A stretch of DNA of 48,291 nucleotides. It comes from Psammoneis japonica (Eukaryota). The notes below the pieces were generated by a model, which did not search any database, was not told where the DNA came from, and was given only the letters and a program-made list of their open reading frames with translations. The stretch covers positions 124,001 through 172,291 of the forward strand of contig QPGO01000071.1 of the NCBI GenBank assembly GCA_008632985.1, read 5' to 3'. Positions 12,036 to 48,291 of this stretch are shown in pieces (the stretch's first letter is position 1; every line of letters starts with the position of its first letter). Position numbers and translations under genes: made by a program.

Positions 12036-12066
<31 letters not shown>

Positions 12067-20000: not shown

Positions 20001-20670
20001 TGAGGGACTGAATGATTGGCAAGTGTGTCAGGTGATTCAAACAGACAAGAGTGACGCCGACGAGGTGCAGTTGGTTCACAAATCTGTGTTGGACTTCCTG
20101 ACTGAGGAAATGGCCAAGGAAATTGTTCCAAACAGCTGTGCCGCTTTGTCTTGTGAATCTGAGGAGGGATTCTATCTGCTGCAATGGGATGAACTCCCCC
20201 ACAAAGCACAGGAGGATGAGGTTTGGAAAGAGTTTGACCCACCCATGACTGACAAGGCCGGTGAATGGGTTTGCAAGGGAACGCATCTTAACCCTGTTCC
20301 ACGGGCAAGAGGATGGTGCACTCCCGGTGATGCTGAGGAATGCAAGACAAGAGTGTTGCTCAAGCAAATTGCAGTTGCCAACATTGAGCTCAATGAACCA
20401 TCAGCCAATCTGGAACTGCCAAGCATGTGCAACAGGAATGAGGCTTCACTTCTTCATCCACGTCATTTGAGTGATGACGAGCATGAAGGAATTCTGGATG
20501 CCATCCGACAGCGGGAGGCAATGGATCATTTTGAGGACTGTTTGGACGAGGTGGAGGAACAAGACATCGAAACTGGTGAGTGGGGGGGAGAGAATGACGA
20601 CATGGAAGACACTGTGGAGGATGATGAGAGCGCGGCAGGGGACAGTGACAGCGACAATTCTGAAAAATAA
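17003..20670 (+). pseudogene. Sola-like DDD transposase (about 1200 aa), disrupted by one frameshift (about 17595) and two TGA stops (18364-18366, 19975-19977)
   Basis: Motifs HDCSERQKAEFNKQVQGDH, SKQDATTT, WDHTDGCAKQH and GAPGHGKGEVDGIG, plus Cys-rich Zn-binding segments and an acidic C-terminus. ORFs 17674-18366, 18370-19977 and 20023-20670 share one frame. Confidence 0.75.
17190..17560 (+). repeat. 171-bp (57-aa) tandem repeat, about 2.2 copies, in the transposase N-terminal region
   Basis: GGCTGCTTTCAACCC at 17221 and 17392; peptide TPSxAPTDLAAFNPNPS...PRPPGPSQM...NPDSDNAAV is repeated. Confidence 0.9.
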
Positions 20671-20689
20671 AATGGCAATGTCATGCAAC

Positions 20690-24443: not shown

Positions 24444-24469
24444 GGCGAATGCACTGCTTTTGCACTCCT

Positions 24470-24718
24470 GTTTGTACGACAAATGCACTCCAGAGAGGGG
24501 GCCAACGTCAGTTGCCGCGAAAGTGATGCGGATGAACAGAGGCAGCCTCTGAGGCAGTTCCAGATGCTGAAAAGTGTCAAACAGCAAGCTGCACTCCCGC
24601 TTGTACGACAAATGCACTCCAGAGAGGGGGCCAATGTCAGTTGCCGCGAAAGTGATGTGGATGAACAGAGGCAGCCTCCAAGGCAGTTCCAGATGCTGAA
24701 AAGCACAAACAGCAAGCG
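24470..24718. repeat. 129-bp tandem duplication near the right end of the Sola element
   Basis: TTGTACGACAAATGCACTCCAGAGAGGGGGCCAA starts at 24472 and 24601. Confidence 0.9.
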
Positions 24719-25393
24719 TCACAGTGAAAACAAACCAAGACAAGTTTGTTCCAGTAGAAACTGTCACTCAGAGAATGCTCGGGCGAATGCTTGAGTTTTG
24801 TAGAAGTTCCGAAGGCCCTGGTGCAAAACAACCATAAAACAATGCATGAGAAGCAACCAGAAAAACACAGGCGCGCGGTGACACGTAAAAAAAAACACGA
24901 TAGAACGACTTGCCGAATTTGAAATGAGAGAATGCAAAGAGATGGTGTCATCCACAATGACAGCAACTCTTTAGAGCCGCAATCGCATTGCGATGACAAT
25001 GATGCAACTTTGAAATGAAAGGAACAGGCGGTTCCACACAACCGCAAGGGCAAAGAGGGGGTTGTGGAGCGGTGACAGCGGTGTGCTGCATTGTGGCTGG
25101 TGTGTGTTGGGTGGACGGCACGTGTTCGTAGAAGTCAGCATTGTTCTGCGCATTGCCAGAAAAACATTAAATGCCAACTGACACGATTCTTCCTGTGACG
25201 CATCATGCACCTCAGTTGTTGCACATGAGCATTGACATCACAAACACACCACGTCATCAAAACAATCAATGTTTGCACAAAGCCAAAAAGTGCGAGCTCT
25301 GCCGGGTGGAGACAAAAATGTCTGGCACTGAAAACTGCGTAGAAAATCTAGCATGATGAAAAGCAGAGCACCTGGAGCTGGGACAGGCCTGGA

Positions 25394-28300
25394 AGAGATG
25401 AGAAGAGGGTCTTCAGGAAGATGAATGCTTGCAAGAAGAAAGAGGATTCTAGCGTAAAGTCCTTTCAAGCACCAGTGAACCTGAACAAAAATCTGAAGAC
25501 ATGTGAAAATTGGATGACAGTCGACACCCCAGACGAGGTTGCTGCAGCTTTGCAGACACAGAACCAACATCATTTCGGCTCAGTCAAGCCAAAGGTGCAC
25601 CACAAACTGTTCCTCCCTTGTCAGTTGACCCATGATGCAAAGGTGACACCATCGTGGCAGATCTCATTTTAGATGGGGAGTGCGAGACCAGTCAGTTCAA
25701 TCTTGCAACTTCGTCACTCGCTCAGCATCTTCGCAGACGTGCACAACCAGCAGTGCGGAACCATCTCTCATCTGCTGCTTTGCTGTCTAAATGGAAGATG
25801 TGGCCCAAATCTGCATCTGCCTCACTGAAATCAGGACTGCACCTTGGCCACTGGAAGGTGCTGCATGCCCCTCATTCTCACGCCAACAATCAAGATGCCC
25901 AAGGCAATCCATCATCAAAGAACAAGGTGCATCTCGACCAAGTCCAGCAAACATTGTTTGCAATTCACCTCCATCTGATCAACTGCGCTTTGAAGTGGGG
26001 AGATGTTCATGTGACCGTTAGAAAGACATCATCAGTGTGATGATGTTCAAAGAACCAGGCAATGACAAAATCCACCGGCTGCAAGCAGTTCACATGTGCA
26101 AAGCAGATTTTCAGATTGTCACGAGTGTGAAGTGGCAAGAATTGGCTCAGCACATGGAGAACCACTGAATGCACAACCCCAGCATTCATGGATGCCATTC
26201 CTTCTTGTCCATCCAGACTCTGGTTTTTCTTGAGAACTTGATGTTAGAAACATCACGAGCTTCTCAAAAGACTTTGCTGACAAGTGATGATGATTGCACC
26301 TCCTGTTGTGATGGAAACATCCCTGCAATCATCGGACTGTGTTCCTGGAGTGATGGAATGGATTCTCACATGGTTGAAGTTAACATGGCCACCTTGCATC
26401 ACGCTCAACAGTGGCATCAGACCATGTCATGATTGACTCAGCAGAGTTGCTCTTGTGCTGAAGAATGACCCCTTTGTGGCCCAGGTCAAGGAAGTGGGAA
26501 CCCTCCGTGGTGTTGGAATGCTTTGTGCAGCTGCCTCTTCAACATTTTTGATGCAAGAGCCATTGGTGCATGCTTCAAAACCCCTGAAGGCAGGTTTTTC
26601 ATCCAAGTGTGCAACCGAGAATGTGCAGACCACACGTGCAAACAGGTCAACAATTTTTGAGCAAGCCTTCAACCTTCTGCACTCAATTTGTCCTTTTCTC
26701 TTCAACAGGACAATCAACTTTGGTGTGATTTGCTTGATGCTGCTGGACATGAACTTGAGTTGCCAAAGTGCTCTTTTCATGCAGTTGAATGGGAGCAAAC
26801 TGAGTGTGGTGATCCGCACATTTGCCCACACCACAATGACCTGGACGTCAAAGTTTTCTCAGCAGACAGGTCTGCTTCTCAATCCAGCACACAACTTTTG
26901 GTGCATGCTCTGCATAAAACGCTCGGACATCACGTGGCTCCAATTGGCACCCAGAAGACTCAGTTGAAGAAACTCCAAACCAAGAGCAACACTGTGACCC
27001 TCTTCCTTGTTTGATCCTGTCCTCTTGATCAGACTGAAACATGGCGACACTGCCACACATGCTGCCTTTCTTTGATGACTTGTGTGCTTCCAAATTTGAC
27101 CTTCCTCCCAAAAGAGTTGCTCGCTGTTCAACAAAAAGCTGTGCGGATTGTGTTTGCCAAATGTGGGCACAATGGAAATGCAAAACAACTCATCCTGTGT
27201 GGACCACAATCTCTTGGCGGTGGCAACTTTTGATCATTGGAAGTGGAACAAGGCACAGCTCAACTGCAATTGTTCCTCTGAAACATTCCAGGGGTGCCAC
27301 AAACCTCAATTTAGGAGAAGATCAACCACGCAAACTGCTGCACATTGCAATCTCCTGGATCCAGCTGAACTCAGGAACAGGAGTGAGCTTCCTGTGGGAC
27401 ATTAACACAGTGCTCCTGTGCATGGAATCCTGTTGGTTTGCTTCCATCCATTCATTCTTAAACAGGATTCATGGCAAAGGATGATGACCGGCACATCATG
27501 GATGTCATCCTTCAGCCTCAACTCTTTTCTCACCATGAAATCAGATGGATCAATTGCTGTCATTTGTGCTTGCAAGTGCTGCCAGCATCTGACATCACTT
27601 TGTCAGATGGTTTGACAATGGACACTGCAAAAACAGCCAGAGATCCTTTGCTTCAGAGCAGCTCAAGTGCACTGAATGATGTTGAGCAGCAAAATTCAGG
27701 AACAAGAGCTTAGGCCGCATGGAAGAAGTTCTGTGCTTCCCTGTGTCATCCAGCATCACAGACTCTGAAAGAACCTCTTGGCAACTGGTTGGTGCCCCCT
27801 TCTCAGATGCATGGCCTCTGCTTGTTTTTCTCCTTCTGAAGACTGCTTTTGTGCATTCGGTCTGCCACCAGGCATGACATTTTTCAGGTGAATGGCACCA
27901 GAACTGACTCAATCACAGAGTTGGAGATAGTCCCAACACCATCCAATGAATCTTTTCCAGCAGAGCTGTCCACAATGGAAGACAGGTGATGGGTGTTCAC
28001 CCTGCCACGTGCTTCTGTGTTGGATCCACCAATTTCCAGGTTGCCGGATGCATTCCAGGACATGCTGCAATCTTTGTCCCAATGGGAGGCTGTGTTGTTT
28101 GAACAACTCGAATTTTGCGTGTCACCCCATGTGCTGATCCAACATTTTGCATCTTTGACTTCTTTGACTGCTGGAAGTGATGGATTTGCAAAGGAGAGAG
28201 CTGCTGCCTTTGGTTGGATGATTGCTCTTGCAGGGACTCCATTGGTTGATTGCACTGGCCCCATTTTCAGAATGCAGCCATTGTCACACCAAGCAGAAGC

Positions 28301-29880
28301 ATGCAGGATTCTTTCAATCTTCCAACTCATCTGCCAATTTGTGGAATGCTGCCGAATGGAACAGTTTCCGGAGATGGAAGTGCACTGTGACAACAAAGCC
28401 CTGGTGTCTTGTCTGGAACAGACTGCCTTCACCCTTCCAGCTCCATCTCCAGGAGAACAGTCCAACAACACAAGAGACTTTCACATCAGACACCACAGAG
28501 CCAACACCCTCTCCTGTGGCTGGGATGTCATCAACAAGACATTGCATTCTTGTGTTGCAATGGAGAGATCCTGCTCAACTGGTGTGTCATCCCCACCATC
28601 TGTGCAAGTGAAGTGGGCAAAAGGACACCAAGATTGACATGCCCCTGTCCATGCACTTCCACTCAATGCCAGAGTGAATGCATGAGCAGATCAATCAGCT
28701 GGTGCATGCTGAGGCCATTGCAATTGGGGTGCTGCAGGGTGCTGTCCTTTTCTCATTGTCGCTCATGTTTGAGTCTCCAAGACGGCACTCTGACATCAGG
28801 TTGCAAATGGCAAATTGTCAGGCGTGCTGCCACCACCCCACAGCTCCTGCAGTGCATCATCGAGCATGGTCAGTGGCACCCAGATGTGATCGATCTGACA
28901 GATTGGGGCGCTCGTGCCACACTGACAAAACATCACTCCAAGCAACACATTGGGACAGTCAAGCTGGTCCATGATCTTCTGCTCACCAACAAGATGGTCC
29001 ACAGATGCAACTCAGCACAACCACTGCACCATTGTCTGCTGCTGGCATCCAATGGAAGACGGGGATCATGTCCTTTGATGTCCACACAACAAACCCTGGC
29101 ACAGAAATTTCCTGCAAGGTTTAAGAGGTGCTGTTGCGATCGAATTGATGCCGTGCCTGCACTTTCACAACTTTTTATTGGACTCCATCCAAGCACAGTT
29201 TAATGGCAAGATGGTTTGTCTTGAAGATTTAGATTGTCTCATTGCAGAGCCCTGTGACAGGCTCAATCTGACGTGGGGTGGAGACAAGTGTTTGGCAGAT
29301 GGTGCTCTGCTCTCTGGAGTGTCATTCAGCCCAGATGTCTGCAAGACTCAGGTGTTCTTCACAAGCACCAGGAAGAGAACAACCACCAAATTGGACAGTG
29401 CAGATGGGGTCATTCATCTGGAGACAATGGTGGAGTCTGTGGGAAGAACACAACCACCATGTGCACGGACACAATGCAGACACCAGGAAACCTTCTCAGT
29501 GATAAAAAGTGGAAGCCGAATTGACAGCTGTGTGCAACAAATGCCAAGAACATTTGGCTAAAGACCACGGGGTTTTGCTTGACTCTGCAGAAGAACATCA
29601 AACTTTCACCACAACGTGCACGCAAAATTGGATCTCAGTGGCAAGGCCCAGACTCAAAGAAAGTCTCAAGGAAGCCAAGAAGCCAGTGCTTTGCGGCATG
29701 CGCACCATCACCAGTTATTTCCGTCGGGCGTCTCCTCAGGGAGACACCGATTCAGGCTGATCGTGTTAACTTCTGCTGCATCCCCAAGTGGGGTGCACTA
29801 GAGGTGTGGGACAGCTGGCGCCGGTGTTGCTGGGCAAAGGTGTAATGGCACTTAAAGTTAGTTTTCTTTTTTATTTTGCT
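25394..29880 (+). mobile_element. Ambal-like LINE, 3' part: degenerate reverse transcriptase, RNase H and C-terminus (3' boundary approximate)
   Basis: RT: SGLHLGHWK, FKEPGNDKIHRL..H...ADF, DDDCTSCCD, GPGQGSGNPP, LELPKC. RNase H: AGSDG...AAFGW, HCDNKALV, VKWAKGHQD. Ends RTITSYF...TGA at 29760. Many frameshifts and stops. Confidence 0.8.
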
Positions 29881-31509: not shown

Positions 31510-32039
31510 TTTCTTGAGCTGCTTTGAATCGTATCATACTGTAATTACTCAACGCAAAACGCAACGCACCTGTCACCACTCAATACTCGACGCACTATAT
31601 CACCACTCAACGCTCAACGCATTTTTTATCACCACTCAACGCTCAACGCATTCATCATGAATACGACAACGGATGACAGCTTGAACGAGTTTCTTTTTGG
31701 CGCATAGTTAGTAGAACTTACATTCTGTACTTCATTCTACATGCAACGACCTTCCCACAAGCAAATGAATAAAGCTGCAATGAAGCGAATGTGCCATTGC
31801 GTGCCGCTTCGTTTGGCCACAATCCGCACAATTTTACAATGTTGCTTCCACTCTTGACTGTTGACGCTGGGGGGGGCATTGAAGCCTGAAGAACTTTCCA
31901 AGGCTTATCGTGATATGGTAATGTGAAGGAATTCGACGAGGAAGGGTAGCCTTTATCGGTTTAGGGGGGAGAATTTTTCGATAAAATGGGGAATCCCCCC
32001 GATGAAAAGCCGGGGGCCCAGTTTTTGGAAGGCAGCGCC

Positions 32040-34100
32040 TGCAGTACAGTGCACGTGGGTGGTGTGGGGTGGGCAGGGCTGCATGCAGTCTCTGCTCTAG
32101 AGAGCAGGAAGAGAGATGCATGTCAGGCAGCAGAGTGGTTGCAGTTGCCACTTTGGTGGCAGGCACTCTCTGCTCTGGGCACCAGCAGCACAGCATGTTG
32201 AGCAGAATGCCCGCGTGGCCTTGTTTGATTGGAGGGGTGTGTGTGGCGTGCGTGGGGCACGCGTGTGGCCGCGAGCACTGGCGCAACTCAAGAGTGGACA
32301 AGTTGCGGTGGCAAACAATTCCCTGATCTTGTGTCTTCAGCCATTCAGACAATGACTCCATTCTCTCTCTTGCACAACCTTCATTTCACAGCCCTCGTGT
32401 GCAAATTTTGCTCACAGCTCTGTCAGAACGAGCTCGCGCTAACCACTGCAAATCACGCACACAAGTCAATGCACACGGACAAACTCCCATTGCAACCTGG
32501 ATGCTTTGTGGCAAAATGTCAATTCCTGATGAGTGTCACACAAATCAATGTAAGATCGCTGCATGTCACATGTGCAAGAACTCATGTTGCAGCCCGGATT
32601 TTCTGTGACAAAAACTGTTGCATTCCTGCAGCCAAACTCAGCAGCCACCACATGCACTCAGTCAGCAAGTCACAAAAAAACTTTGGCGTCACTTGCCCAG
32701 GTGGTCAGTGAAAAGTCATCTGACAATCAACCAAGTGCGTCGTGCTGCTTTGAACCAGTGCTCCACTTGGCGGTGCTCAGAAAGCCCTGTTTGGTCATGT
32801 GCAAGAAAGAGAGAGAGTGCAATCTTGTCAGAAAGAAGCCTTGTTTGATTTTCATGGAACAAGTTCCTTGGGAGAGAAAAGACATGCTTGACTGCACCAG
32901 AAGATGGCTGAACCAAAGCGATGAGAAATGTGCAGCCTCAAACCACACACTCCCTGAGGTGCTTGCTGCAACTGCACAAGCACTCTTGCAGTCTGCATGA
33001 TGAAGCCACATCACCTGCACTTTCTCTTCTTTTTGTCATTCTCAAGTTCAAAACCCATGCTCAGACAAAGACAGGAGCAGCGCCAAGTGAGAATGTTGCG
33101 TGCTGACATGCAAGCTGGCAGCGGCTCATGACCCATGTGCTCCAGACAAAATAAACTGGGGAGCCCCCCCCCCCCTGAGCTGGCAAGCCTGAGGAAAAGG
33201 CAAGAACATGCCTTGACTGAGCTTGCCAGGCAGCTCATGGTGCAGAAATTTGACCCAGAAATCATGCAGCTGCTGGAGAACATAAAAAAATCAGCCAAGT
33301 CAACCACAGAGATGACAAGGTTCTCCCAGGAAAGGCGCGCGCGCATCCCAACAAGGCTCTGGGAGTCAATGTGCAGGATGACAGCAAACTGCAGGTTGTT
33401 GTTGAGGCAGAAATCTCAAACAGAGATTCCCTTCCTCTGGCAAAATGTGCGCCTGCACTCATGACAGGTTGGGAAAATCTCCGCTGCATTGCTGGACTGA
33501 AGATTCACAAATGCACTAAAAAGGGGGCAAAAATTGCCTGTGTTTGTCATGCATGGAAGAAAAGGATCAACAGCGCCATTTGCAATGATCGCATTTTTGA
33601 TGTTGGCCCCAAACCGAGCAGCATGTGATCCCGCAAGGATGTTGCACAATTCTGGAGGAATGTCACAATTCATGTCGACTTCCAGAAAATCTCAACCGAC
33701 AATGGAAATTCATTCAAAGTCAAAGCACTGCCCAGTGACCTGGGCTGTCCGCTGCTGTTTGAGGAGTGCCTAGATGAATTGGAAGACCATTTCACAGTCT
33801 CCACCCACAAGGCAGATGTCTGCCATGGCCACACTCCAACCAAAAGGTTTGAAAGAAGAAGAATTCAAAGTTTTTTGTTGAGCTGAAAAACAAGGAACCA
33901 CTTGAGATTGACCTGTTTCTTGTGTTGAGAAGCACTCACAAGGCTAAGACAAAAGACTTCAAACAAAACCAATGAATCAAGGGCCCTTGTTCATTGCCTC
34001 TGTGACAAATGCAACTGCTTGTGGGCCAATTGATGCTAATTTGCGGAAAGAGAGATCGTTGTTCTCCTTTCATTGAGTTTGCTTTGAACTAATTTCTTCA
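32040..34100. pseudogene. Degenerate TpA-depleted repeat remnant, family unassigned (boundaries approximate)
   Basis: Sharp onset of TA-poor, TG/CA-rich sequence at about 32045. Broken Cys/His-rich frames. Poly-C at about 33164-33175. Confidence 0.5.
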
Positions 34101-34667: not shown

Positions 34668-36640
34668 TTATTGGCTCGCTCCTCCTCCTCCACTATGGCT
34701 TTCATTCAAAAGAGCGCATTCCATCTTGATGACTTTGAGCGCGTTGTCTACGGCAATCCGATCCTTGGCCGCCTGTTTCCAATCACGAATGGTAAAGGCC
34801 GCCTGTCCTTCTAGCTTGTCCAGCTGTTCTACCGCACGGTCCAGCTCACCGAGTTGAACATGTCGCTGTGCCTTGACCAAAATGTAATCGGGAGCACCAT
34901 CGTCGTCTTGAGAGGCTGCTTCTTCCGGAGACGGACTTAGTTTAAGAGTCGAAAAGGCCATTCCCATTAGCTGTCCTTCCAATCCAGACCAGCCCTTGGG
35001 AACCATGGCGGCTTGGCGAGCCTTGTTCTGAATCGTTTCAAAGCGGGTCTGCAACTCCGACAGGGTTGGAACTCCCTCCTTGACTGACTTTTCAGGAATC
35101 TTTTTCAAGGCTGTTGCAATGACTCCATTGTCGCCAGACGCATACGAAAGAGCATTTAGTTCTGCCTCGGCGCCCTTGTTGGTTTCCAGCTTGGCACCCA
35201 AGGCCATTGCCGCGGCACTGACACGGTGGGCCATTTGAGAGCCACTCTCAAAGGTTTTGCTCGCTTCGAGGGACGACTCGAGTTGCTGCAACTGAGATGA
35301 TAATTCTTCCAAGGAGGCCATTTTCGTTTGAAGCTCTTGAGCAAACTCTGCCTTGGCCGCAGCCAATTTGTTGCCGAATTCGGCTTCGTGCTTTGAAGAT
35401 ATTTCTCGAGACAAGCGTTGTTCTGTGCTTTCCAAATCAGCCTTGTGTTCCGCCGCTTGTGCATCAACGGCGGCCTTGACGACGGATTGGATGGCATCCT
35501 CTTTGGCTTGTAGCGCGGCGTTGGTTTGACGGGTCATCTCCTGTTCTTGTTCCAACAAGCGACGTGCCAGGAGTCCTTCAAACTCCATACGCTGTTGCTG
35601 AAGAATCTCCATGTACCTACAAAGAAAAGAAGAAGAGAGAAAAGAGGGTGAGATAAGAAACCAACAACAACTAAACCCCATACACATTCGCTGTCACAAC
35701 TCAACTTGTCTGCCGTTTCCTTTTCCTTGAGTGCCAAGAATTCCTTCATTCGCACCGCCTCCCACTTGGTTCTCTCGTTCATTTCCGCCGCCAATTGAAC
35801 CACGCGAGCCCTAAGCTCGGTATCGGATAGCTTGTCGACATCAGTCAATAGGGATTCATCCAGATTGGCACGAAGAGCCTTGTGCGCTTTTTGAAGAGTA
35901 GCAGAAGCCTCCTCGTCTTCCTTGGAACGCAACTCTTGGGCAGCCGCGTCTGCCGTCCACAAGTGAGCTGTAGCTTCAGCCTTCTTTTTTGGTTCCATGG
36001 CGACCCGATTTCCTTGAGGTGGATGCGAAATCTCTGCCGCGTTACTCAACGCAGCCGGACGAGTTCCTGGAGGTGGAACGTGAATAGTTGTCACGCGGTG
36101 TCCGGTCGGTTCCTTTGCTTCCTCCTTGGGTGCTTCCTCTTCTTTTGTGACTGGAGCTTCTTCCTTCTTGACCGGTTCAGGCTTTTTCTCCTCCTTCTTT
36201 GCAGCAGGCTCTTCTGTAACTCGCTTCTTTTCCACTACAGCAGCAACAGGTTCTGCCTTGGGCTCTTTCTTTTCCACCTTTGCAATCTCCTGTTCGACAA
36301 GACCAGGCATACTCCTCTCCTTGGCCTTAATGGGCTCTGGAGACTGTGGTTGCGAGTTCATGTACATGTATCCTCCAACACCCAATGCAGCCACCGCAGC
36401 AACACCAATCAGGAGCGAGTTACTGCTGCCGCTATCCTGCTTGGAAGGCGTCGGAGGAGGAGGCACTCCTTTATCACCGCCACCACCACTCGATACTGGG
36501 GGCTTTGAATCTGTTCCTTCCAATTGTTTCTTGTTGAGAGCACGCTTTTGTGCGGCAGTCGTCATCATGGGTCGAGTGCTACGCCGATATGCAGATAGCA
36601 CGGCGGCTCGCTTTGGGAGAATCGATAACTGTCTCAACAT
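34668..36640 (-). CDS. MIC60: MICOS complex subunit MIC60 (mitofilin), about 627 aa; exons 36640-35706 and 35616-34668
   Basis: Presequence MLRQLSILPKRAAVLSAYRRSTR, a single TM (LLIGVAAVAALGVGGYMYM), a long coiled coil and a C-terminal mitofilin domain (GVPTLSELQTRF...DYILVKAQRHVQLGELDRAVEQLDKLEGQAAFTIRDWKQAAKDR). GT-AG intron 35617-35705 restores KEKETADK|YMEILQQQR in frame. Confidence 0.9.
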
Positions 36641-36959: not shown

Positions 36960-37779
36960 ATGACGCTTCCGGTCATGGATCTCTTCTTCCGGAAGAAATG
37001 TCCGTTGAGTCTTCTAGCGATAGTAATCGGAGTGACACACACGACCGTTAGGTCATAATGTCATCTCCAATCCCTCGTGAGATCTTCTCACAATTCGTAT
37101 CTTTAGCGTGTCTTATTGTCCCAAAACCACTTCTTATCATCCTCTGTTGAATTGTACAACCTCAAGAGAGTCCTGAACTCTCCATCCTACACAGTGCATT
37201 GTTGCATCCCAAGTGGTTACGACCCCAATCCACGCACCGGTGTCAACTCGCAACGGAGTTGCTGCCACTCGTTCGTCTCGTTACAGACGACATCCTGTCC
37301 AACGGCGATCTTCCATGTCGCAATCCAACGGCGATCATCTATGTCGCAATCCCCACCCACTAATCGATCCTCTATGTCGAATCATCCACAACCATGTCCA
37401 TGGATCCTGATGCCGTCAAGATGTTTGCTGAGGCCTTCGCCAAGATGCAAACCTCGACCAACCCTCCTGCGATCCCCACGCCGCTTCGCGGCGGTGTCCA
37501 CCACTCTCATGGAGTGCATCTGGGTGGTTTGGCTCTGAACAACAAGTGCAAGCAGACTGACACCCGCACCTGCCGTTTTGCCTCGCAACGTCGCCATCCG
37601 AAAGCTGTCGACTCTGTCGAGCGATCTCTCAGAGATCAACTCGCTTTGGCAACCACATCCAAGTTCAACGGCCAGATTGAGTTGTCCAACGGTTCCAGCG
37701 CTGAACTGGACAAAGACCACTTCGTCAAGACCATTCAGGACTTAATCGAGTCGCACGGACAAGAAACTTTCTACCATCT
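36960..37779 (+). mobile_element. Outer Ty1/Copia (CoDi-like) element, 5' part: probable LTR/UTR (start uncertain) and beginning of gag (ATG 37394)
   Basis: The gag frame MSMDPDAVKMF...GQETFYHL is cut at the CATCT target site and continues in frame as KKVDGKVV after 44863. Possible PBS GGTTACGACCC at about 37214. Confidence 0.7.
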
Positions 37780-38055
37780 TGATAGAAATTGAAGGCAAAC
37801 AGCAAGAATTCAAACAACAACTCCTTGCTGCTGTCTAAACAGCAGATGAGTCTCCGCTCAGAGACCGTTGCAGGAGCCGAAAGACATGCAAGTCGGTACA
37901 ATCGGGCTGCTGTTGTTGTTCTTGTGAGCCTTGTGGCTCGAAAGCAAACTACATCGCGCGTGAACGTGCGGAACTAAAGCACACAAAACTGTGCGCGGTA
38001 AACTAAACAGCGCGCGATGCTTCGCGCGCATCCAAATCCTGTTCAAATCCTGTCA
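37780..38055 (-). repeat. 3' LTR of the inner Copia
   Basis: Colinear with 44583-44858 with no indels. Preceded on the minus strand by the purine-rich tract AAACTGGGGAG (PPT, 38056-38066). Confidence 0.95.
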
Positions 38056-38089
38056 CTCCCCAGTTTGCTTGAGGAGCCACAGAAACAGA

Positions 38090-41000
38090 TTCGACTTCGG
38101 ATGGAATGAAGTTCCAGAACATGAGGGGGCGGAGAAGGTCCCAGATTTGGGAGCAACCCCAATGCTTGCTGAGAATGTCAGCAGGGTTGCGGGAGCCTTC
38201 GATGAAGTGGAACTCAAGGTAACCAGAGGCAATTGCCTCACGCACATGGTGGAACGACAGTGCGGTGTGTCGCTTGTGTAACTTGGAGTGCGGGATGGTG
38301 GCACTGTCTACAACCGACTTGTTGTCACCGAACATGTAACTGACATTACGGATCGGGACGCCAAGGCAGCGCAGGGTGATGCGCAGGTCGACAATCTGCT
38401 CAACACAATTCCTTGCGGCAACAAATTCAGATCCGCAGGTTGCAGTCTCCACGGTGGCTTGTTTCTTGGAGAACCAATCAGCCGGGAATTTGTTGAGGAA
38501 GTGGAGCATTCCCATGACAGAGCGTCCGGTGAGCATGCAATGGTGCAAGTTTGCATCGACGCAGTGGGTGGTGGTGACGAACTTGCCAAGGGGCGGTGGA
38601 GCATCCTTCGGGATCATCTCTTCTGCTTCACCATGCACGGAATGCATCCATTCACAGGCTGGAGCAGGGAGATCCGAACAGTCGGGCTCTTCCGTGCGAA
38701 CGCGGAGAGCACCGTGTCGCATCTTGGAGAGGTGCCCACAGACGCGTTTGGCACGATCCAAGTGGCCTTGACGGGGCGCAGCTCGGAAGCTAGAGAGTGA
38801 CATGACAGCCGTGGTAATGTCAATTCGACCAAGGGACACTGCCCATTGGAGTGAACCAACAAGAGACTGGAACTTGTGAATGCCATCGGGTCCCAGCAGT
38901 TCGGAAGTGTCCAGTTCGGGGTGGTCACCCTTCTCCAGAGGTGACAGGGCGTTGGTGGCAGGTTTCTCCCCAAACAGTCGGGCGCAGCTGTCGACCATGC
39001 GCTCGATGTACTTGCGCGGAGACAGGCACAAGGTTCCGTTGGGGTCCCGGGAAAAGTCGCAACCCAGATGGAACTCAATGGGTCCCGCACCCTTGAGCTT
39101 GAACTTGTGCTTTTCCGTGAGAGTGTCGACGAAAGATTGAGGGTCCTTCATGGCAATGGCGAGGTCATCCACATAAACGGCAATGCATTCACAGTGGTCG
39201 CCGTTCCTGCGCATCCAAATGTCGGGTTCGGCGCGGCAGGGGAAGAAGCCTTCAGCTCGCAGGCAGTCAGCGAAGCGCTCGTGCCAGCGGAGACCGGAGC
39301 TGCGCAGTCCATGCAGTGCCTTGTGGATGACAAGGATGTGTCCTTCGAGTTTGCCAAATTCGGGTCCAGCTACAATGTAAAGCTTCTCCTTGGTGGCAGC
39401 TTCAAGGTGGGCATTGCCAATGTCGGTGGCCCATGTCTCCAGCTCGTTGAGTTCGGCCAGGAAAATCATCAGCCGAAGGCCACGGAGGGAGACCACTCCG
39501 GAGCAGACACTGTCGATGGGTGCGTCCGTGAGGTGCCCGTCGGCTACGAGTCGTGCCTTGTGGCGACCGTCGTGTTTCACGTCGCACACCAGGTGCACTC
39601 GGATCTTCTTGTGTCCCGCAGGAGGAGTGGAAGACTTGAAGGGCCCGCAGTCATGGAAGACTTCGTATTCGTTGAGTTGGTCCATCTCGAGATTAGTTGC
39701 GTCTCCCCACTTGCGGTTGCCGTTGCGTTCGTCTAGTGACATGGCGTGTTTGTAGTTCCGGGGAACTTCGCACCCGCACTTGTGGCGAGGTGCAGTGCGG
39801 AAGGAGCGAAGCTTGGCTTGGTTGGCCATGCGAAACAGCTTCTTTTGGCGCCTCGCGACAGTGCGGAACCGCTTCCAGCCATCCGTGTCGAGGAGTCCGT
39901 TCTCTCGTGCATAGATGGCACAGGTGACGGGGTCGTCCTTGGCGATGATGGCAAGAGGCTCGGACGTGATCTCCCCACTTTCCCATTCAAGCATGATGTT
40001 GTAGCTTGAGCCTTTCCAGGTTGGGTCGTGAGGCTTCAGAGGTCCTTCGTGTGACACGATGCGTCGAAATTTCCAAATGGTGGTGTCTTCGTCTTCTTGC
40101 TCAATGTGATTCATGATGTCATTGCAGGCAAGGACTTCCTCGCATTCGTCATTGTTGACAGAGCAGACGAACCCAGTGAGCTCGGGATTGCCGTTCACTT
40201 TCCATTCATGGTCTTCGACGGCCTTGACGATGCGAGCTCTGTGGCGTTGTCCGTCCTCTTGTGGCTGCATGAGGAAGGTACGTCCAATGATGTCTTGCGG
40301 ATCGAAAACTGGCATCTTGGGTGTCCTGATCTCCCCATCAGGAGAATCGACGGGGTTGTCGTCATGGCGAGATTTGATGATGGGTTCAGGTGGCTCCCCA
40401 TCAGGAGGATCAAGACGCAGGTTTCGAACGGCAGGATCGGGGGTAGCAGAGCGAACGTTGGACCGGCAGAGGATCTTCTGAGTCTCGTCAGATAGGATCT
40501 TGAAGGTCATCTGGTGGCCGACGTGCTCAGCAATGCCAACGAAGCGTCCACGCAACTCACGGGATTCGGACGGCCAATCGGAGTCATCGAGGTGGAAGCA
40601 CACTGGTTCCCACCAGTGAAAGCGAAGCAATGGGCTGATGTCCGGGGTGGATCCAGTGAGAGTCTCGAGGGGCGTGCGCCAGTGGAGACGTGGGACGCTG
40701 TGTGGTTGAGTGTGAAGCACACGTGCATGAGCGCCAGCAGCCATGTGTGGGCGGGCGAACCAAAACGGTCCATGACAGTGTTCGCCATGCGCTTCACGGT
40801 CTGGTGTCGACGCTCGGCAAAGTTTTGGTGTTGCTGGTGAGGCTCACTTTGCCAGCTGGAGATGAAGAGGGCGCGCAGGATCCCGAGCACTTTGTTGCTG
40901 ATCTCAACTTGAGCACGGTCGCTAATGAGTTTGGATGGGGCACCACGTTCACGGATCTGATCCTCGAGTGTGTTGACAAACTCTTTGTCCGTCTTAGTGC

Positions 41001-43644
41001 CGTAGACGTCAGTGACGGTAGACTCGGTGCCAACAAACAGTTGGGCGCTGGTGCAACCAGAGTCGACGGCCGGGGTGTCGGCATGAACGGTGTCAGTGGC
41101 GATGGGCTCATTGCGGCGGTGTACATTAAGGGCGGGGTTGGGTGATTTGCAGGCCTTGCGAAGGTGTGTGCCGGCGGGCATGCGGGCGTACTGCGTGGTG
41201 CAGTCAAAAGTACGACGGACCGCATCGGCAGGCAGGAAGCCAAAGTGAGGCCGAAGAGACTCGAAGGGGGGGTCCTTGGGCTGTGCAGTGCGCTCCGGAG
41301 GTGGAACGTCATCGCCCTTGGGGTCAATCGCATGCAGATGACACTCGTAGAACACGTCGTCGTTCGGAATGAGGTGATCATCGAGGGCGGACGCGTGATC
41401 GGCAGACAAGGAAGCGGACAAGATGGTCTCGTTGACAACGACACGGTGACGGCAGTTGCCGCATTCGTCAAATGGGTTGGCAGTGGGATCGTCCTGCAGG
41501 TCAGAGATCGCATCGTACCACTGGTCGTCGTCAGTGACAGAGTGATCGAGGACGGAAGGGTCCCATGTGTCATCACCGGTGAGGATGACATGGGGCAGGG
41601 TGTCCCATTCGGTGTCAGTGCAAGGTCGCATGGCAACATAAGGCAGGCCAGCCTTGATGTCAATGGGGATGACATAGCCATCAGGAGTGGCAACACGTTG
41701 CAAGCCGTTGGGCACCTTGACAGAGCGATCGTTGACATCCTGTTTGCACCATTCGAGCTGGCCGCAGGAATGGATGGTCTTGCCCTTTCCCGTGCATGCG
41801 CACTGATGGAGGATGGCGATGACGGGACCACGCTGGGTCTCAATGACGCCAACTGATGATCGTCAATGCCCTGAACGTCGACTTGGCGAGAGGTGCGTGC
41901 GATGACGCGAACGTCGTCGCCAGCAATGCCGCCGTTGGCCCCACGATCGACTAGAGCGCCAGTGCGTGTGGAGCGATGAGCAGAGGCAGAGCAAATGACA
42001 TTGTGGTTGTTGACGCGGCAGCAAGTGCGGCCGTTAAGTTCCATGTCATCTGCAGAAGCTGGCGGGGTAGAGGAAGCGGCGGATGGCCCCGGTCGACTGG
42101 CATTGGAGGCTTGGTTAGGAGACAACAGACGTTGCAGATCACCGGGTGGCAGTGGCTTGCGCTTGGTGAGGTGCGCCAGGATGGGATCATCCGAAGTGGC
42201 GTCCACATGTGTGGCGGAGTCACCACAGTCAGCAGGAGTCGTGTTGGACAAGTTGACATCACCGTCACTCCCAAGGTGTTGGTCGTGAAGGTTGGCCGTA
42301 ACAGACTCATGGCAGTCACTGGCTCGCGGGTTGCGGGGAGGCGGACGAGATTGCTCAAGGATGATCGCCTTGGAGGAATCAGGCAACGAATCCCAGAGCC
42401 GTTGGTGGTCGGGAGGGAGACGTCTCCATTGGACACCGGTGAGGCTGGGACCGCGGGTGCAGGCAGCATTGGCTTGAAGGACGTCAACGTCGCTGTCAAT
42501 GTCGTAGAACACATTGTCGGACGGTTCCTCGGAGCAGACGTCGTGTGCGCACATGGCGCGTCGGGGAGCTCGAGGTGTCGTCTTGGGTTGAAACGTGCTG
42601 TCGTGCTGAGCTGCCGCGGAGAGGAGCAAGCCACAGCATTGATCGCATGTGAGGCTCTTGTCACTCTGCGTGCGATGCTGATCAGCTTGGTTCTTGACAG
42701 CACGGAGTTCCTCGACAGGGTGCACGGCATTCTCGAGCATGACGCGCTTCTGTCCTTCAGAGAAGTGGTCACTGGCGGGGATGAGTGCCTCGCACTTGCG
42801 CAACTGATCTTGCCAATGAAGGATGAACCCGTGGGTCGGACCTTTCCAAGTGCCATCACCAAGACGTGCGGTGGTGAGGTGCGTGAGCAGGGTGGAGGAC
42901 TCGACAGATGCACGGGTGGAGGCAAGCGCGCACTCAGACAAGGAGCGGCAGACGGTCTGTGCGTCAGAAGACCCCACATTTTCGCGAATGAGAGCCTTGC
43001 CCTTGTCGGTGAGAAGGATGCGTTCGAAGACGGCGAACATGTGCTTTTGCTGTTCAGCAAAGAGCAGTTTGTCTTCGGGGCTGGTCGGTTTGTACGACGA
43101 GTCTAGAATGCACTCGACGTCTTGGGCACGGGCTTGTGCCACAAGTGAGGTGTGCCAAGTGTGCCACTGCTTGTCGGATTTGAGAGCCGTGAAAGCGGTG
43201 GGATCACGCTTGATGCCTCGCTTGAAGTCTCGCACCGGGTCGCGTGCCTTGGTGGGGTTGGTGACATGTGGAGGTGCAAGGGGTGAGCTGCCGATGGACA
43301 CAGAGGACATGCAGTCCGGGCTGAGGCGGCAGGCAAGGAACTCGTCATGCGTGAACAAAGAGGAGTTGTTGGCAACGTCAAGACCTTTGTGTGCTTTGAC
43401 AATGTGCAGGCCAACTGGTGCTGCTGACATGTTCTTGTAACCACGGGGCAAAGGGATTGCATTGGTGCCGTTGTCGTGCTCAAGCGAGTCGATTTGGGAC
43501 GGCATGAACGTGAACAGTTCCTGATGCGAGTCCGTGCCGTCTTGGGCCAAAGCCAAACGAAGAGGACTCCCAGCACCTTGGGCAAGCACGGTTCCAACAA
43601 CATGCTCGAAACCATCGGTTTGTTGCTGACGAGTGAGAACCATG
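38090..43644 (-). pseudogene. Inner Copia gag-pol polyprotein, frameshifted at about 41850 and about 40700 and extensively Tyr>Cys/His mutated
   Basis: gag FKRGIKRD; protease LVDRGANGG; integrase ATDTVHADTP, ISDRAQVE, SEPHQQHQNFAER; RT KARLVADGH, TDIGNAHL, KALHGLRSSG, YVDD; RNase H VDANLHH, GSEFVAA, GDNKSVV, NPADILSKHW. Confidence 0.9.
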
Positions 43645-44565
43645 GCAGACAAAAGTGGTGTCAGGACAATCAATTCTGGTTGGGAAGCGAAGGCAGACTC
43701 GAAACTTGGGTGAGAACAGACTTGACTTGAAACAGACTTGACTTGAAATCTTGAACTGTCTTAAAATCAGAAGTCGCCGGGCTTTGTTGTCCCGTTCGTT
43801 GTCAAGTGCTAAACTTCCTGTCCGGTCCGTAGAGTTGTGCCGGCACGTCCGAACCCGCAGCTGGCGGCGCTTTGGGTTGCTTGCGAGCGGAGCAGCGGGT
43901 TGTAAACCCCTGCAGGTGAGCTGACCAGAGGTGGACAAGACCCCCAAACCATTCTCATTTTATGTCGGTTGGATTTCCCGATCAGGCTGGCCAGTTGACG
44001 CAGGCGTCAGGCGCTGTGGACGAACGAACAAACGCGGGAAAGCACCCTCGCCCCAACGCAGGCTGCAATCACGGCTGCTTGCTCTCACAGTCGTCCTCGT
44101 GGACCCAGTGGAACTGCAGAGCACCAGCAGTCCGGGGTAGATCAGGTGCAATGGACTCGGTGTGCTTGTAGAGTGGCAGCAAAACCGCAGTCTGAAGAGT
44201 GGGTACAGGTTCTTGGCCGTGAAGACATGCACACATGCACATGTCTTCAGCGACGAAGATCCTTGAATATGTGGGGTTCTTGACCGTCAACCGATGAACA
44301 GGTATGTCAAGGGATGAGGATCAAGGACAGACTTGGATGTGACCGTTGAATGTATGTCTTCAGCGATCAAAGGCAGTATAATCAATCCAGGTGTCCAGCG
44401 GTAAGGAGACTTGACGGTGACGTTAACTTCCTGCCGATGCCCTGGTGTTGAATGCGCGTAGACTTGCCGATGTATGTAGAACATATACGGAGGTCCACGT
44501 GGAATTGAAATAGCGTCGTTGGTAAATCAACGACGACGATGGCGGTTGCTCAATGGGTTGACAAT

Positions 44566-44582
44566 GAGCAAGACTGTTAATC
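44566..44582 (-). promoter_or_regulatory. Primer-binding site of the inner Copia, complementary to a tRNA-Asn(GUU)-like anticodon arm
   Basis: Immediately internal to the 5' LTR the minus strand reads GATTAACAGTC, the complement of GACTGTTAATC. There is no canonical TGG start. Confidence 0.5.
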
Positions 44583-44858
44583 TGATAGAAATTGAAGGCA
44601 AATGGCAAGAATTCAAACAATGACTCCTTACTGCTGTCTAAACAGCAGATGAGTCTCCGCTCAGAGACCGTCACAGGAGCTGAAAGACGTGCAAGTCGGC
44701 ACAATCGGGCCACTGTCATTATTCTTGTGAGCCTTGTGGCTCGAAAGCAAACTACATCGCGCGTGAACGCGCGGAACTAAAGCACACAAAACTGTGCGCG
44801 GTAAACTAAACAGCGCGCGATGCTTCGCGCGCATCCAAATCCTGTTCAAATCCTGTCA
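44583..44858 (-). repeat. 5' LTR of the inner Copia
   Basis: Second LTR copy, TGATAG...CTGTCA on the plus strand, followed by TSD CATCT. Confidence 0.95.
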
Positions 44859-44863
44859 CATCT

Positions 44864-47800
44864 CAAGAAAGTCGACGGCAAGGTCGTGTGCCTTTTTGAT
44901 CATCTTCACGCCTTCACTGTCAAAGACCTTGAGAAGGAACATGAGACCCGTGTGGCGGCCACAGGTGACGAAGGCTACGATCAGCATGAAATCGATGACA
45001 TCGGCTTGTCACAACTCATCGTCAAGTCGCGCATCACCGAAACCTTCCGTGAAAAGATTGAAACCAAGTTTGATCACTTGAAGAAACTGCAAGGATCTTC
45101 CGGGGTCTGTCTCATTTATGATGGCTCTGGACACCTGCAACGCCAGTGCTCTGGTTGACGTCAAGGCCGCCAAGGAAAAGTTGAACGACTTAACTCTGGA
45201 TGCCCACCCTGGCGAGGACTGCACCGAGCTTGCAACCGAAGCTCTGCGCCTGCTCAAGATCATGCAGACGGACCATGCGTCACCAGTTGAAACTGGGTCC
45301 ACCATTTTATCTGAGGTGTCAAAGACATCGTCCGAGTTTTTCAATCGTCAAGTTTTTGCCAAGCTCGACTCCGTCAAGCGCTTGGAGTGCAAATGTCGCT
45401 TGCGTGACCCGGCAGAAGTCCCCAAGGATGCCGGCTGTGCGGATCTTGGACCTGTTGGCCTCATTGGCTGGATCACCAAGACCCATGGCGAACTCATTAG
45501 CGATGAAGATTGGCCTGCCTTAGCAGCCAAGCTCCCGGAATCCAACCTCACCAAGGACAACTCGGAAAAGCATTGCTGCGGCTGTGGCAAGGTTGGGTGC
45601 ACCAAACGCACGTGTCCTGCCTGCAAGGAGCAATGCAAGAAGGACAAAAAGGGCATGGCGGACAAGTCCAAGGATGACCCTCCGGATGTCCGGAAGACTG
45701 ACCCTTCCAAGAAACCACCCAAGCCGGCCTGGCATTTCGTTCACAAAGGTGCCACTGTCACCGACGAGAAAGGCACGACCTGGCACTGGTGCGACAAGTG
45801 TGTGAACAAGGAAACGGGCAAGAAGGGCATGTGTCAAGGCCACTCCTCCGCTCAACACACCGGGAAACCGTCTGTCAAAACCGAAACCACCGCTGCGGCA
45901 AATTTGTCTGCTGTGTCGGACCCCTCTTCGGGCATTCCTTTTGGTCCTCCCGAGCAGACGACGTCTCCGCCTACAGACGAACCCTCTGACCCTCACGAGC
46001 TGGTTTATTGCGGCATGTGGTGTGCACCTGTGGACGACTCTTTGAGTTCGACTCCAGTGACTACGACCGTCACGTTCACTCCTGCTCCATCGGCCGAGAG
46101 GGAGACTGCCGTGGCCAAACCCGCTCCCATCTTGGTTGAAACGGTTGACCCCGAAGACGCTGACGATTGCTCCGAGCACTCTGACGCTCACTCCTCTTTT
46201 GACTCCCTGCCGTCAGCTATCGAGCTATTTCCGGCCCATGCTGTGCATGAGATTCAAAATCCGGACGTGTTTTATGACACGATCGCAACTCACGTGGAAG
46301 GTCTGTCCGACGACGTGTTAGACGATCTCGTTTCCGGGGCAAGCATCCTGCCTTTCGAAGACAGCTACGAGCACTTACCTCCAAGCACCCAGTGTCGCGG
46401 TTTCGAATTTTACGATCCCGAACCCCAAGATGTTGATTGTGGCGTCGAGGAGGCAACGCCGAGCTCTCGTCTTGAGCTCTTCTGGAACTTCTTGAAGCTC
46501 CGAGTTTTCTGGCTGTTTGCCATGTTCTGGGAAACGGTGCCACACATTTGCTGTGCGCCGATTCCTGTCTTACCTCGTCGTATGCGCCGTAAGGCATTCA
46601 TCCCAACCATTCACGGTTTCCCCTCTACCTGGATGGTGCTGACTGGAGCTGTCATGGTCTGGGCGTCTGTTTTCAACGGTCAGCTTCCCACGTATCCATT
46701 CTCCAAGGTCCCCTCTCGCTTCTCCAAAGCTGGCTCTCAGGTCTGCTCGATCATTGAAGAACTGGACGATAAGACAGTGTTAGATCCGGGCAGTTTGGTG
46801 GAATGCAACAAGATCAAGGCGCGACAAGTGCTTGCCGAATTTGTGGAGCGCGATCCGGACCATCATCTGAGCAAGAAATTCACGCAGCTCTGGGAGAACG
46901 ATGCATGCTCTTCCCCAGGCCGCTGTGTCCCTCCAGCTCTAGAAGACCCCGAGTCCTACTTCGACACCTATGATTCAGAGGAAGCCCTCGGCCCGCTCCC
47001 GACCGAGCCGAGCCACCACTTTGATGCGGTTGAGGAGCTCTCTCCGGACTATTTTCGTTTCGACGAGCTGTCCACCAAGTTTGGTTTCGTGGACACCACT
47101 CCATGGCAAGACCCTGTGAAGCTTCTCCAGGCAGCTACTGACGGAACCGAAGCCTGTCCCACTCATACCTCTATGCAGGTGTTGACAGGCCAACGTTCTT
47201 CAGCACAACTCGCCGCCGACCCGCAAGCTTTGCTGAGCCTAGCACATGAGCGCCACACCGTCATGTGCGACACTGGCGCATCCTTGGCCATTGCTTACGA
47301 TGAAAACGACTTTGTCGGACCTCTGACAATCCCTGATGGCCCATTGAAGCTTGGGGGTCTAGCAAATGGCTTAACCATCGCCGGCATCGGACCCGTCTCC
47401 TGGGTTTTCCATGACAAGGACGGCTCTGAGCTCGTCGTCAAGACGATGGCGTGCCATGTGCCTCAGGCCGGACAACGTCTTCTATCCCCACAACGCCTCT
47501 ACAGCAAGGAACATGGCGTGACAGGAAAATGTGAGGGAGACGAGGACTCATTTCGAGTGCACATTGATGGCGCCGGTTCGCTCAAGGTCGCGCACGCGTC
47601 AAATCACTTGCCGGTTGCGTCTGTGACCAACGGGGTGGCACCCGCTCCTCAAGTCAATCTGTCTGTGTTGCACGAGGACAACCAGAACCTCACCACCGGT
47701 CAGAAGCTCCTTCAAGAATGGCACTTCAGGTTTGGTCACCTGAACATGCCACGCATCCAAGGCCTGCTTCGGGCCGAACCTTTTCTCCGACCCAAATTCA

Positions 47801-48291
47801 AGCATGCTTCGCGTTGCGACATTCCGCGGTGCGAGGTGTGCGAACATGCCAAAGGACATCGCCGAACCCTCAAGTCTGCCAAACATGCGGCTACTCCAGA
47901 GCGTGAGGGTGCTCTTCGAGCCGAGCATCTACGTCCAGGCCAAGCCGTCAGCGTGGATCACTTCGAATCCCGTCTCCTCGGCCGAACCTACGACTCCTGC
48001 GGGAAGGCCTCGTCCCAGCAATACAAAGGAGGCTGCATTTTTGTGGATCATGCCTCCGGTTACCCACATGTTGAACACCAACTTGGTTTCTCTGCTGTGG
48101 AAACGGTGCGAGCGAAGCAAGCGTTTGAAAAGCACGCGATGGACCACGGCGTCATCATCCAAGAATTTCTTGCCGATTCTGGCGCTTTCAAGGCCAATGC
48201 TTTTGTGCAACACATGCAACAGCACGAACAACGTCTGCGTTTTTGCGGAACCAATGCCCACCATCAGAACGGCGTCGCAGAACGTGGCATT
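44864..48291 (+). mobile_element. Outer Copia, continued: gag (Zn-knuckle-like), protease, GAG-pre-integrase and integrase core, running off the window; frameshifted
   Basis: CCGCGKVGCTKRTC and WHWCDKC...H...H in gag; CDTGAS protease motif at about 47265; LLQEWHFRFGHLN...CEVC; PGQAVSVDHFES, GGCIFVDHASG, LADSG and FCGTNAHHQNGVAERG. Confidence 0.9.

Follow-up and report, generated by a model that had tools for sequence, protein, structure and literature searches.

A copia-type element and its long terminal repeats

The DNA analysed here (the window) is a stretch of 48,291 nucleotides from Psammoneis japonica (contig QPGO01000071.1). Between positions 37780 and 44858 it carries a Ty1/copia-type retrotransposon, recognised by its RVT_2 frame, by direct long terminal repeats (LTRs) that start with TG and end in CA, and by a target-site duplication of 5 bp. 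In this element, and in other transposon-derived DNA of the window, the dinucleotide TA has given way to TG or CA. We describe this signature in the LTRs, the polarity of the change in coding sequence, its confinement to transposons, its sequence context, and the kilobase-sized blocks nearly free of TA that occur in the same stretch. The features of the element are the following.

37775-37779, target-site duplication CATCT, left; the same five letters also come after the other LTR
37780-38055, minus strand, 3' LTR in element orientation, 276 bp; direct repeat, 94% identical to 44583-44858
37800-37967, variable LTR stretch holding all 11 differing sites, from the LTR comparison
38003-40843, minus strand, RVT_2 frame with the reverse transcriptase and the C-terminal part of the polyprotein (Pfam PF07727, E 7.9e-27)
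40507-41862, minus strand, frame aligning upstream of the reverse transcriptase, presumed protease-integrase (tblastn 41-55% identity, residues ~95-715)
40675-40699, minus strand, first frame change relative to homologous polyproteins (tblastn frames -2/-3 meet)
41841-41853, minus strand, second frame change relative to homologous polyproteins (tblastn frames -3/-1 meet)
41851-43760, minus strand, Gag-like N-terminal frame (weak alignment with the N-terminal ends of long homologues, 32-59% identity)
44583-44858, minus strand, 5' LTR in element orientation, 276 bp; direct repeat with TG...CA ends
44859-44863, target-site duplication CATCT, right, read from the flanked LTR alignment

The TG...CA ends and the CATCT on both outer sides of the LTR pair were found by repeat search and flanked alignment, and a purine run lies just inside the LTR at 37780-38055, on the element strand (read from the alignment). 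The open reading frame (ORF) with RVT_2 runs on the minus strand, and so does the element, which makes 44583-44858 its 5' LTR. The RVT_2 frame is 60-66% identical to public copia-type polyproteins. No family member was found among public proteins, where the best relatives are just 65-66% identical, and searches by blastn, repeat search and tblastn found no further copy of the element within the window. In the frame upstream of the reverse transcriptase no Pfam family was detected, integrase included, and the region aligns with the corresponding section of copia polyproteins; the Gag-like frame likewise returned no Pfam family. At the first frame change other copies of the family have one extra base after 40691, and at the second the contigs of two sequencing runs (X3 and X4, introduced below) have 28 extra letters behind 41848. 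A 26-letter degenerate pattern of the LTR ends matched nine metagenome loci, each by the pattern alone and thus by chance, and no viral contigs.

An ungapped comparison of the two LTRs gives 16 mismatches at 11 sites, all of them transitions, with no indels. This agrees with the initial annotation, which had also placed every difference within a pyrimidine-purine (YR) step; indeed, none of the 132 positions outside such steps differs (95% upper bound 2.2%), against a divergence of 5.8% overall (Kimura two-parameter distance 0.062). YR steps cover 52% of the LTR positions, and the probability that all 11 independent sites would fall there by chance is about 8e-4. Because the 132 other positions are unchanged while the overall divergence is 5.8%, the earlier claims that the rate lies far above background and that dating would overestimate the age of the insertion stand as well: LTR-divergence dating is invalid for this element.

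The differing sites fall into the three classes that had been described before. Five doublets read TG in one LTR and CA in the other (37800-1, 37818-9, 37869-70, 37908-9 and 37914-5), three sites are TA versus TG or CA (37827, 37897 and 37918), and three are CG versus TG or CA (37878, 37886 and 37967). Among the 72 aligned YR steps, 20 are CA/CA, 17 TG/TG, 18 CG/CG and 6 TA/TA, and those that differ are CA/TG (5), CG/TG (2), CG/CA (1), TA/TG (2) and TA/CA (1). The 18 CG/CG steps bear out the statement that many CpGs remain shared and intact. The three CG-type sites are ordinary methyl-CpG-type transitions; by contig depth, the majority of the family has CG at 37886 (95%) and at 44681 (99%). 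The last 88 bp of the LTR, with a CpG cluster, are identical between the copies and contain three shared TAs, in the contexts CTAA, GTAA and CTAA, which are poorly hit elsewhere. The directions of the LTR hits form a mirror pattern, in which both copies switch between LTR columns 40 and 48.

Polarity in the polyprotein and in the family

As tyrosine is encoded solely by TAY, the columns in which an outgroup has a conserved Tyr show the fate of TA. We used 120 homologous polyproteins, 55-68% identical, as the outgroup, and took columns conserved at 80% or more, with 60% as a looser threshold. The window polyprotein agrees with its homologues at 446 of the 476 conserved columns, and at 442 of the 455 that are not Tyr. 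The 21 conserved Tyr columns have fared very differently: 4 are retained, 9 are now Cys (TGY), 5 His (CAY), 2 Phe and 1 Trp. At the 60% threshold, 10 of 34 are retained, with 12 Cys and 8 His. Conserved Arg columns are represented by 36 CGN codons, 2 AGR and 1 CAT. The loss per site is thus 14/18 for TA and 1/37 for CG (Fisher p = 1e-8), and with 14 of 21 Tyr codons now TGY or CAY and 36 of 37 CGN Arg codons intact, TA is lost far faster than CpG. This supports the view of the initial annotation that CpG decay is an unlikely source of the TG/CA pairs. The depletion is visible in the composition as well, Tyr making up 1.03% of the aligned residues in the window and 4.26% in the homologues.

Both strands are hit throughout the coding part. 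The changed Tyr codons at 39778 and 39784 have opposite outcomes only 6 bp apart, and none of the 20 changed Tyr codons is CGY, whereas strand voting at each position predicts a third (p = 3e-4). Nineteen sites had hinted that TG or CA outcomes run strand-coherently along the element, but this disappears with the 20 Tyr-derived sites, many of which are singletons. Two public homologues carry the same signature (2 of the 120): His or Cys has replaced Tyr at 8 of 18 columns in P0108 and at 10 of 21 in P0080, while Arg is retained. These two proteins belong to different families and are 55% identical to each other, so the pattern is not confined to the assembly of the window.

The coding-part rates can be carried over to the LTRs in an odds model that sets the hit probability at 0.46-0.67 for a TA and at 0.03-0.07 for a CG. 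In this model, 14 ancestral TAs yield 1.5-3.1 visible TG/CA pairs, and about 21 CGs yield 0.01-0.05, so that a TG/CA pair between the LTRs is 29-411 times likelier to come from TA than from CG. By this analogy, TA is the inferred ancestor of the five LTR doublets.

For the comparison within the family we aligned 14,435 contigs of run X1, within a set of Logan contigs of four runs (X1-X4) from one sample. Place-by-place counts for the family are lower bounds, from the 40 listed among 391 differences. Transitions make up 358 of the 390 variable places in X1, and 33 of the 37 places listed inside the element lie in YR steps. At least seven of the places listed are double sites, with TG in some copies and CA in others, and comparison with homologues polarises five of them to TA: four are Tyr codons (TGC/CAC across copies) and one is an invariant Val (GTG/GCA from GTA). 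Another of the seven is uninformative. The expectation that the family would point to TA rather than CG at TG/CA sites is thus borne out, within the coding part, at five of seven sites, and fails at 41103/4, to which we return below. The family ratios of TG to CA at the double sites range from about 50:50 to 88:12. At 38337, 39753 and 41003 the window retains TAC (Tyr), while TGC makes up 32-64% of the family depth.

CpG decay has a part in this variation. Among the places listed, 12 have at least 95% of the family depth against the window; at 8 of these the family has CG where the window has TG or CA, at 1 the family has CA and the window TA, and 3 lie outside YR steps. It follows from the first group that CpG decay also acts on the window copy, at about 8 of 474 CpGs.

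These results bear on the proposal that methyl-CpG decay is the only process, with the TG/CA pairs derived from CG and the TA states from second hits or from CpA-to-TpA changes. A change from CG to TG or CA is clear at three LTR sites and at 8 private sites inside the element, the double site 41103/4 is compatible with a CG ancestor, and the number of transitions needed is the same as when the pairs start from TA. We nevertheless regard this proposal as highly improbable: the CGN Arg codons are nearly all intact where 14 of 21 Tyr codons are lost, five of the seven double sites polarise to TA, and 18 CpGs are intact in both LTRs. In addition, the old repeats described below are depleted in TA, while C-to-T change at CpA predicts enrichment. 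CpG decay, or a C-to-T process resembling repeat-induced point mutation (RIP), had been the starting hypothesis and was rejected on the Tyr/Arg polarity and the double sites.

The summed contig depth is ~59,000-136,000 in the element, ~250,000 on the LTRs and ~2,100-2,400 in the flanks, values that should not be read as copy number. Runs X2-X4 comprise 0.36-0.54 million letters each, and roughly a tenth of their contigs lie on the element and none on the flanks, as would be seen if a genome made up largely of this family were sequenced very shallowly. In the left flank, the window has TG, CA and TG at 37530, 37550 and 37558, where the sole aligned contig has CG at all three. These CpG-type differences lie within 29 bp, ~230 bp from the LTR edge, and the contig may come from an allele or from a paralogue of the neighbouring element, or may point to an assembly error.

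A technical artefact, in which the real DNA has TA or CG, perhaps modified, and base-calling, polishing with reads of roughly a hundred paralogues or polymerase misreading wrote TG or CA, appears unlikely to us. It would account well for a signal that is limited to silenced repeats, the DNA in which modified bases would be located, and for double LTR differences that outnumber single ones. At 42515, 40173 and 44391 all or nearly all of the contig depth contradicts the window, some private letters have no supporting contig, and the flank contig just described points the same way. It also has to be taken into account that all four runs come from one sample, possibly the source of the window itself, and that polishing errs precisely at the LTR states of high-copy repeats. 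Against this, contigs of all four runs show the same variation, X1 including a contig of 315 kb, and low-depth contigs support most of the private letters (for example with depth 1064 at 40208 and 2064 at 44681). The TG:CA ratios reach 88:12 rather than staying at 50:50, and the opposite outcomes 6 bp apart and the absence of CGY among the changed Tyr codons speak against a strand-specific miscall. Furthermore, the loss tracks age, an older remnant (see below) having lost more TA, acquired a stop codon and kept 78% of its conserved columns, as gradual accumulation predicts, and the signature recurs in the two proteins from other public assemblies.

Ectopic gene conversion would leave the hypermutation of the family real, but have ~170 bp of one LTR imported from a differently mutated copy. 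All LTR differences do lie in 37800-37967, next to the identical 88 bp, the depth on the LTRs relative to the flanks implies many donors, and the mirror-image pattern of directions is odd for independent hits. However, no tract is needed to explain the identical 88 bp, whose only TAs stand in the poorly hit contexts CTAA, GTAA and CTAA; a donor would have brought no difference at any of the 132 positions outside YR steps, and no donor copy was seen. We therefore judge such an import distinctly unlikely.

TA-poor domains, host genes and neighbouring elements

Across the window the observed/expected ratio of TA is 0.24, and in the element it is 0.21, with a CG ratio of 0.91. Features of the window outside the element are listed here.

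501-3000, 8501-9500 and 32001-34000, smaller TA-less domains, from the dinucleotide map
3644-7981, minus strand, ABCB-type full transporter, host gene, with at least one GT-AG intron (GTAAGT at ~6830)
12001-29500, largest TA-less, CpG-poor domain, with 0-7 TA per 500 bp where 30-37 are expected
17563-20677, plus strand, decayed coding remnant of a protein family of unassigned function (979 homologues at E<=0.001)
34668-35693, minus strand, Mic60/Mitofilin homologue, host gene, by homology
45082-48291, plus strand, second copia-like element, which runs off the window (gag_pre-integrs E 8.6e-5, diatom copia homologues)

The TA-less blocks amount to ~23 kb in total, with observed/expected ratios of 0.00-0.2 for TA (0.00-0.29 in the largest block), 0.15-0.5 for CpG and 1.6-2.06 for TG/CA, and 0-7 TA per 500 bp where about 33 are expected. 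They consist of complex sequence rather than simple repeats, have sharp edges and alternate with gene domains of normal composition. In the largest, 12001-29500, each 500 bp contains 2-23 CG and 87-129 TG plus CA, with the exception of the low-complexity bin 22001-22500 (63 TG plus CA, and just 16 TA expected). As DNA without TA lacks TAA and TAG stops, many long frames occur on both strands between 12 and 29 kb. This domain is the apparent end state of the TA-erasing process. It also contains two-copy tandem duplications, 92-93% identical, at 17185-17551 (171 bp) and 24461-24717 (129 bp).

The remnant at 17563-20677, with a 536-residue frame of a protein of ~1,100 residues, had no match in sequence searches of Pfam, NCBIfam and PDB and is probably an unclassified mobile-element protein. 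It retains 112 of 143 conserved columns (78%). Only 1 of its 15 conserved Tyr residues is left, 6 having become Cys and 6 His, and of 26 conserved Arg residues 15 are retained and 6, about a quarter, show CpG-type changes (to H, C, Q or stop). The older DNA has thus been stripped of nearly all TA and of some CpG, in addition to ordinary decay.

The TAs that survive in the old domains, mostly in YTAR, reveal the context of the loss. Their residual observed/expected ratio is 0.02 in RTAY, 0.06 where the T follows a purine on only one of the strands, and 0.16 in YTAR (R, purine; Y, pyrimidine); 28 of the 108 survivors are TTAA. As survival is lowest in RTAY and highest in YTAR, the T of R-T-A is the best target. 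The LTRs show a similar tendency, with 0 of 8 inferred hit sites and 3 of 6 intact TAs in YTAR (p = 0.055).

The composition within the studied element is uneven, the leader and LTRs (see 43761-44858) having 12-15 TA per 500 bp versus 1-7 in the coding part. TA avoidance may have evolved in the coding part where synonymous choices permit it.

Host genes show another picture. Their blocks have a CG ratio near 1 and a TA ratio of about 0.4-0.66. The ABC transporter retains 7 of its 8 conserved Tyr residues, and none has become His or Cys, a fate that differs from that of the element with Fisher p = 0.002 (3e-5 when the threshold is relaxed). By best named match, the host gene and the neighbouring element both point to diatoms (Thalassiosira, Bacillariaceae, Fragilaria and Cylindrotheca). 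The second copia-like element has a gag_pre-integrs match of 22.7 bits, which lies under Pfam's own cut-off of 28.4, and by eye its translation shows a DTGAS protease motif and an integrase-like region. Its TA ratio is 0.24 with CpG intact, and of its five conserved Tyr residues one is retained and three are His or Cys. Across the window, three transposon-derived frames have been hit and one host gene has been spared.

The second element starts 223 bp from the studied insertion, which may have entered its 5' region. Contigs of X1 (depth 1050) join 37774 directly to 44859, sharing the five letters of the target-site duplication; they come either from an allele that lacks the insertion or from intact paralogues of the neighbouring element. 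The idea of a polymorphic insertion at this joint was dropped, as the flanks belong to the second copia-like element and the joint may be paralogous.

A proposed process acting on TpA and its relation to known mutators

The explanation that we favour, with moderate confidence, is a transposon-directed A:T-to-G:C process at TpA, accompanied by slower CpG decay, in a copia element of a diatom-like stramenopile. On either strand, the T of TpA would change to C, turning TA into CA or TG, most efficiently with a purine before the T (R-T-A). Alongside it, ordinary decay of CpG to TpG or CpA would proceed more slowly, and host genes would be spared. We infer that the process acts on integrated DNA. 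The two LTRs would then be hit independently after integration, so that hits on opposite strands of one ancestral TA would leave TG versus CA, and a hit in a single LTR would leave TA versus TG or CA.

As to chemistry, analogy alone leads us to favour an enzyme that would modify thymine symmetrically at the TpA steps of silenced DNA, giving a base that mispairs with G; a base resembling 5-hydroxymethyl- or 5-formyluracil is a candidate. Deamination of adenine in DNA at TpA would result in identical letters. No candidate gene for the enzyme, TET/JBP-type hydroxylases included, was found in the window. There is perhaps an even chance that this diatom lineage places a TpA-based mark or editing activity on silenced DNA beside CpG methylation, in which the TpA dyad, at best in RTAY, is modified or deaminated and A:T becomes G:C.

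A different timing would apply if a host factor edited single-stranded cDNA at TpA, such that new copies arrive mutated while the source copies stay intact. The family is prolific although most copies have lost Tyr codons, which such editing at birth would explain. In the textbook strand-transfer scheme of reverse transcription, by which we read the polarity of the LTR hits for this case, nine hits at LTR positions 138-229 fit plus-strand A in the 5' LTR and minus-strand A in the 3' LTR, but the four hits closest to the U5 end have the reverse polarity. Both strands are hit throughout the coding part, and the saturation of 17-kb domains, together with the signature in a protein family in which no reverse transcriptase signature was recognised, argues for continuing action. 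We consider editing at birth rather unlikely and retain a process that acts on integrated DNA at TpA.

Several points weigh against this explanation. The support for TA at the five LTR doublets comes from coding DNA, and the LTR states depend on the accuracy of assembly in a high-copy repeat, for which contigs of one sample were compared. A model of uniform, independent hits fits the LTRs badly, with 5 TAs hit doubly in opposite directions, 3 hit singly and 6 intact. Strong differences in susceptibility between sites must therefore be assumed, and part of the misfit is explained by double hits in the same direction, which are invisible. In the LTR at 37780 all 7 hits are in the direction favoured by context, whereas 5 of the 6 in the LTR at 44583 are in the unfavoured direction (p ~0.06); this asymmetry may be a sign of strand exposure while the element is transcribed or reverse-transcribed, or of gene conversion. 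Among the double sites, 41103/4 favours an ancestor bearing G, either CG or TG. None of the 12 places listed with the family depth against the window has TA in the family where the window has TG or CA; such an outcome would follow if TA seldom persists as the majority state, but it lends the explanation no support. P0080 has Arg at 4 conserved Tyr columns, from which it follows that both strands can be hit at one site. Finally, the enzyme, the chemistry and the timing are hypothetical.

If the explanation is correct, a major marine algal group would possess a transposon-directed point mutation with a base chemistry opposite to that of RIP and methyl-CpG decay. Were it the work of a TpA-based mark or editing activity, it would erase transposon TA hundreds of times faster than background and leave TA-less domains of kilobases, and it would destroy stop codons rather than create them, inactivating transposon proteins through Tyr-to-His and Tyr-to-Cys changes. 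For annotation, gene finders will report long false ORFs in TA-less DNA, and the loss of Tyr may be expected to weaken the detection of transposon proteins by profiles. Maps of observed/expected TA and CG offer a cheap relative clock, as TA is lost first and CpG later. Whether stramenopiles have a TpA-specific DNA modification, or an enzyme editing adenine or thymine, would become testable, and such an enzyme would be relevant to those who build base editors.

To our knowledge, the known repeat-directed mutators, namely RIP, methyl-CpG decay and APOBEC, all change C to T, and we know of no system in which a natural A:T-to-G:C mutator acts on double-stranded DNA as a genome defence. The closest likeness in form is fungal RIP, with which the window shares dense, dinucleotide-specific transitions in repeat and transposon DNA, on both strands, with genes apparently spared and divergence inflated; the same likeness extends to the RIP-like CpG/TCG hypermutation of some basidiomycetes. 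RIP of ascomycetes changes C:G to T:A, mostly at CpA, and thereby makes TpA, stop codons and AT-rich DNA. Unlike RIP, the process in the window changes A:T to G:C, destroys TpA together with TAA and TAG stops and leaves a GC content of 0.49-0.60, and its host is a stramenopile, not a fungus. Where RIP raises TpA and lowers CpA and TpG, the repeats of the window lose TpA and gain TG/CA (1.6-2.06).

Methyl-CpG decay shares with the window the conversion of a symmetric YpR step in silenced DNA to TG or CA on either strand. It forms a minor component here, seen in the 3 LTR sites, the 8 private sites and the Arg losses of the old domain, and the private sites at which the family majority is CG (37886, 44681 and 6 more) fit an ancestral CG for this minor class only. 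The major component differs in starting from TA and is ~25-30 times commoner per site (14/18 versus 1/37).

APOBEC3 and ADAR provide examples of context-dependent hypermutation of retroelements by a host enzyme. APOBEC enzymes change C to T or G to A, whereas the dominant change here is A:T to G:C at TpA, on both strands. ADAR changes A to G on RNA, with a preference for a 5' U and for a 3' G, whereas the process in the window hits TAY, spares TAR and affects both strands, with 12 TGY and 8 CAY at conserved Tyr columns. Moreover, ADAR acts on RNA and so cannot make two LTRs unequal, as the present pair is.

In the openly available literature searched, we found no description of a TA-to-TG/CA hypermutation of transposons, and term searches in two papers on diatom transposons (PMC2806351; bioRxiv 10.1101/2025.10.24.684338) gave nothing on hypermutation, deamination or dinucleotide bias. 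In dinoflagellates, 5-hydroxymethyluracil lies on transposons and silences them, with a preference for TA and TC, according to the accessible part of one report (PMC11572971), and 5-formyluracil mispairs with G and causes mainly A:T-to-G:C changes, according to that of another (PMC7051996); neither of these parts mentions mutational erosion of TA. As far as these excerpts go, the dinoflagellate base, made by a TET/JBP-type thymine hydroxylase, has in common with the process in the window the preference for TA and the location on transposable elements. The present host, with its GT-AG introns and with diatoms as best matches, is not a dinoflagellate, and the process is known from sequence alone. 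Among these systems, the element at 37780-44858 possibly represents a transposon-directed point hypermutation with a new chemistry.

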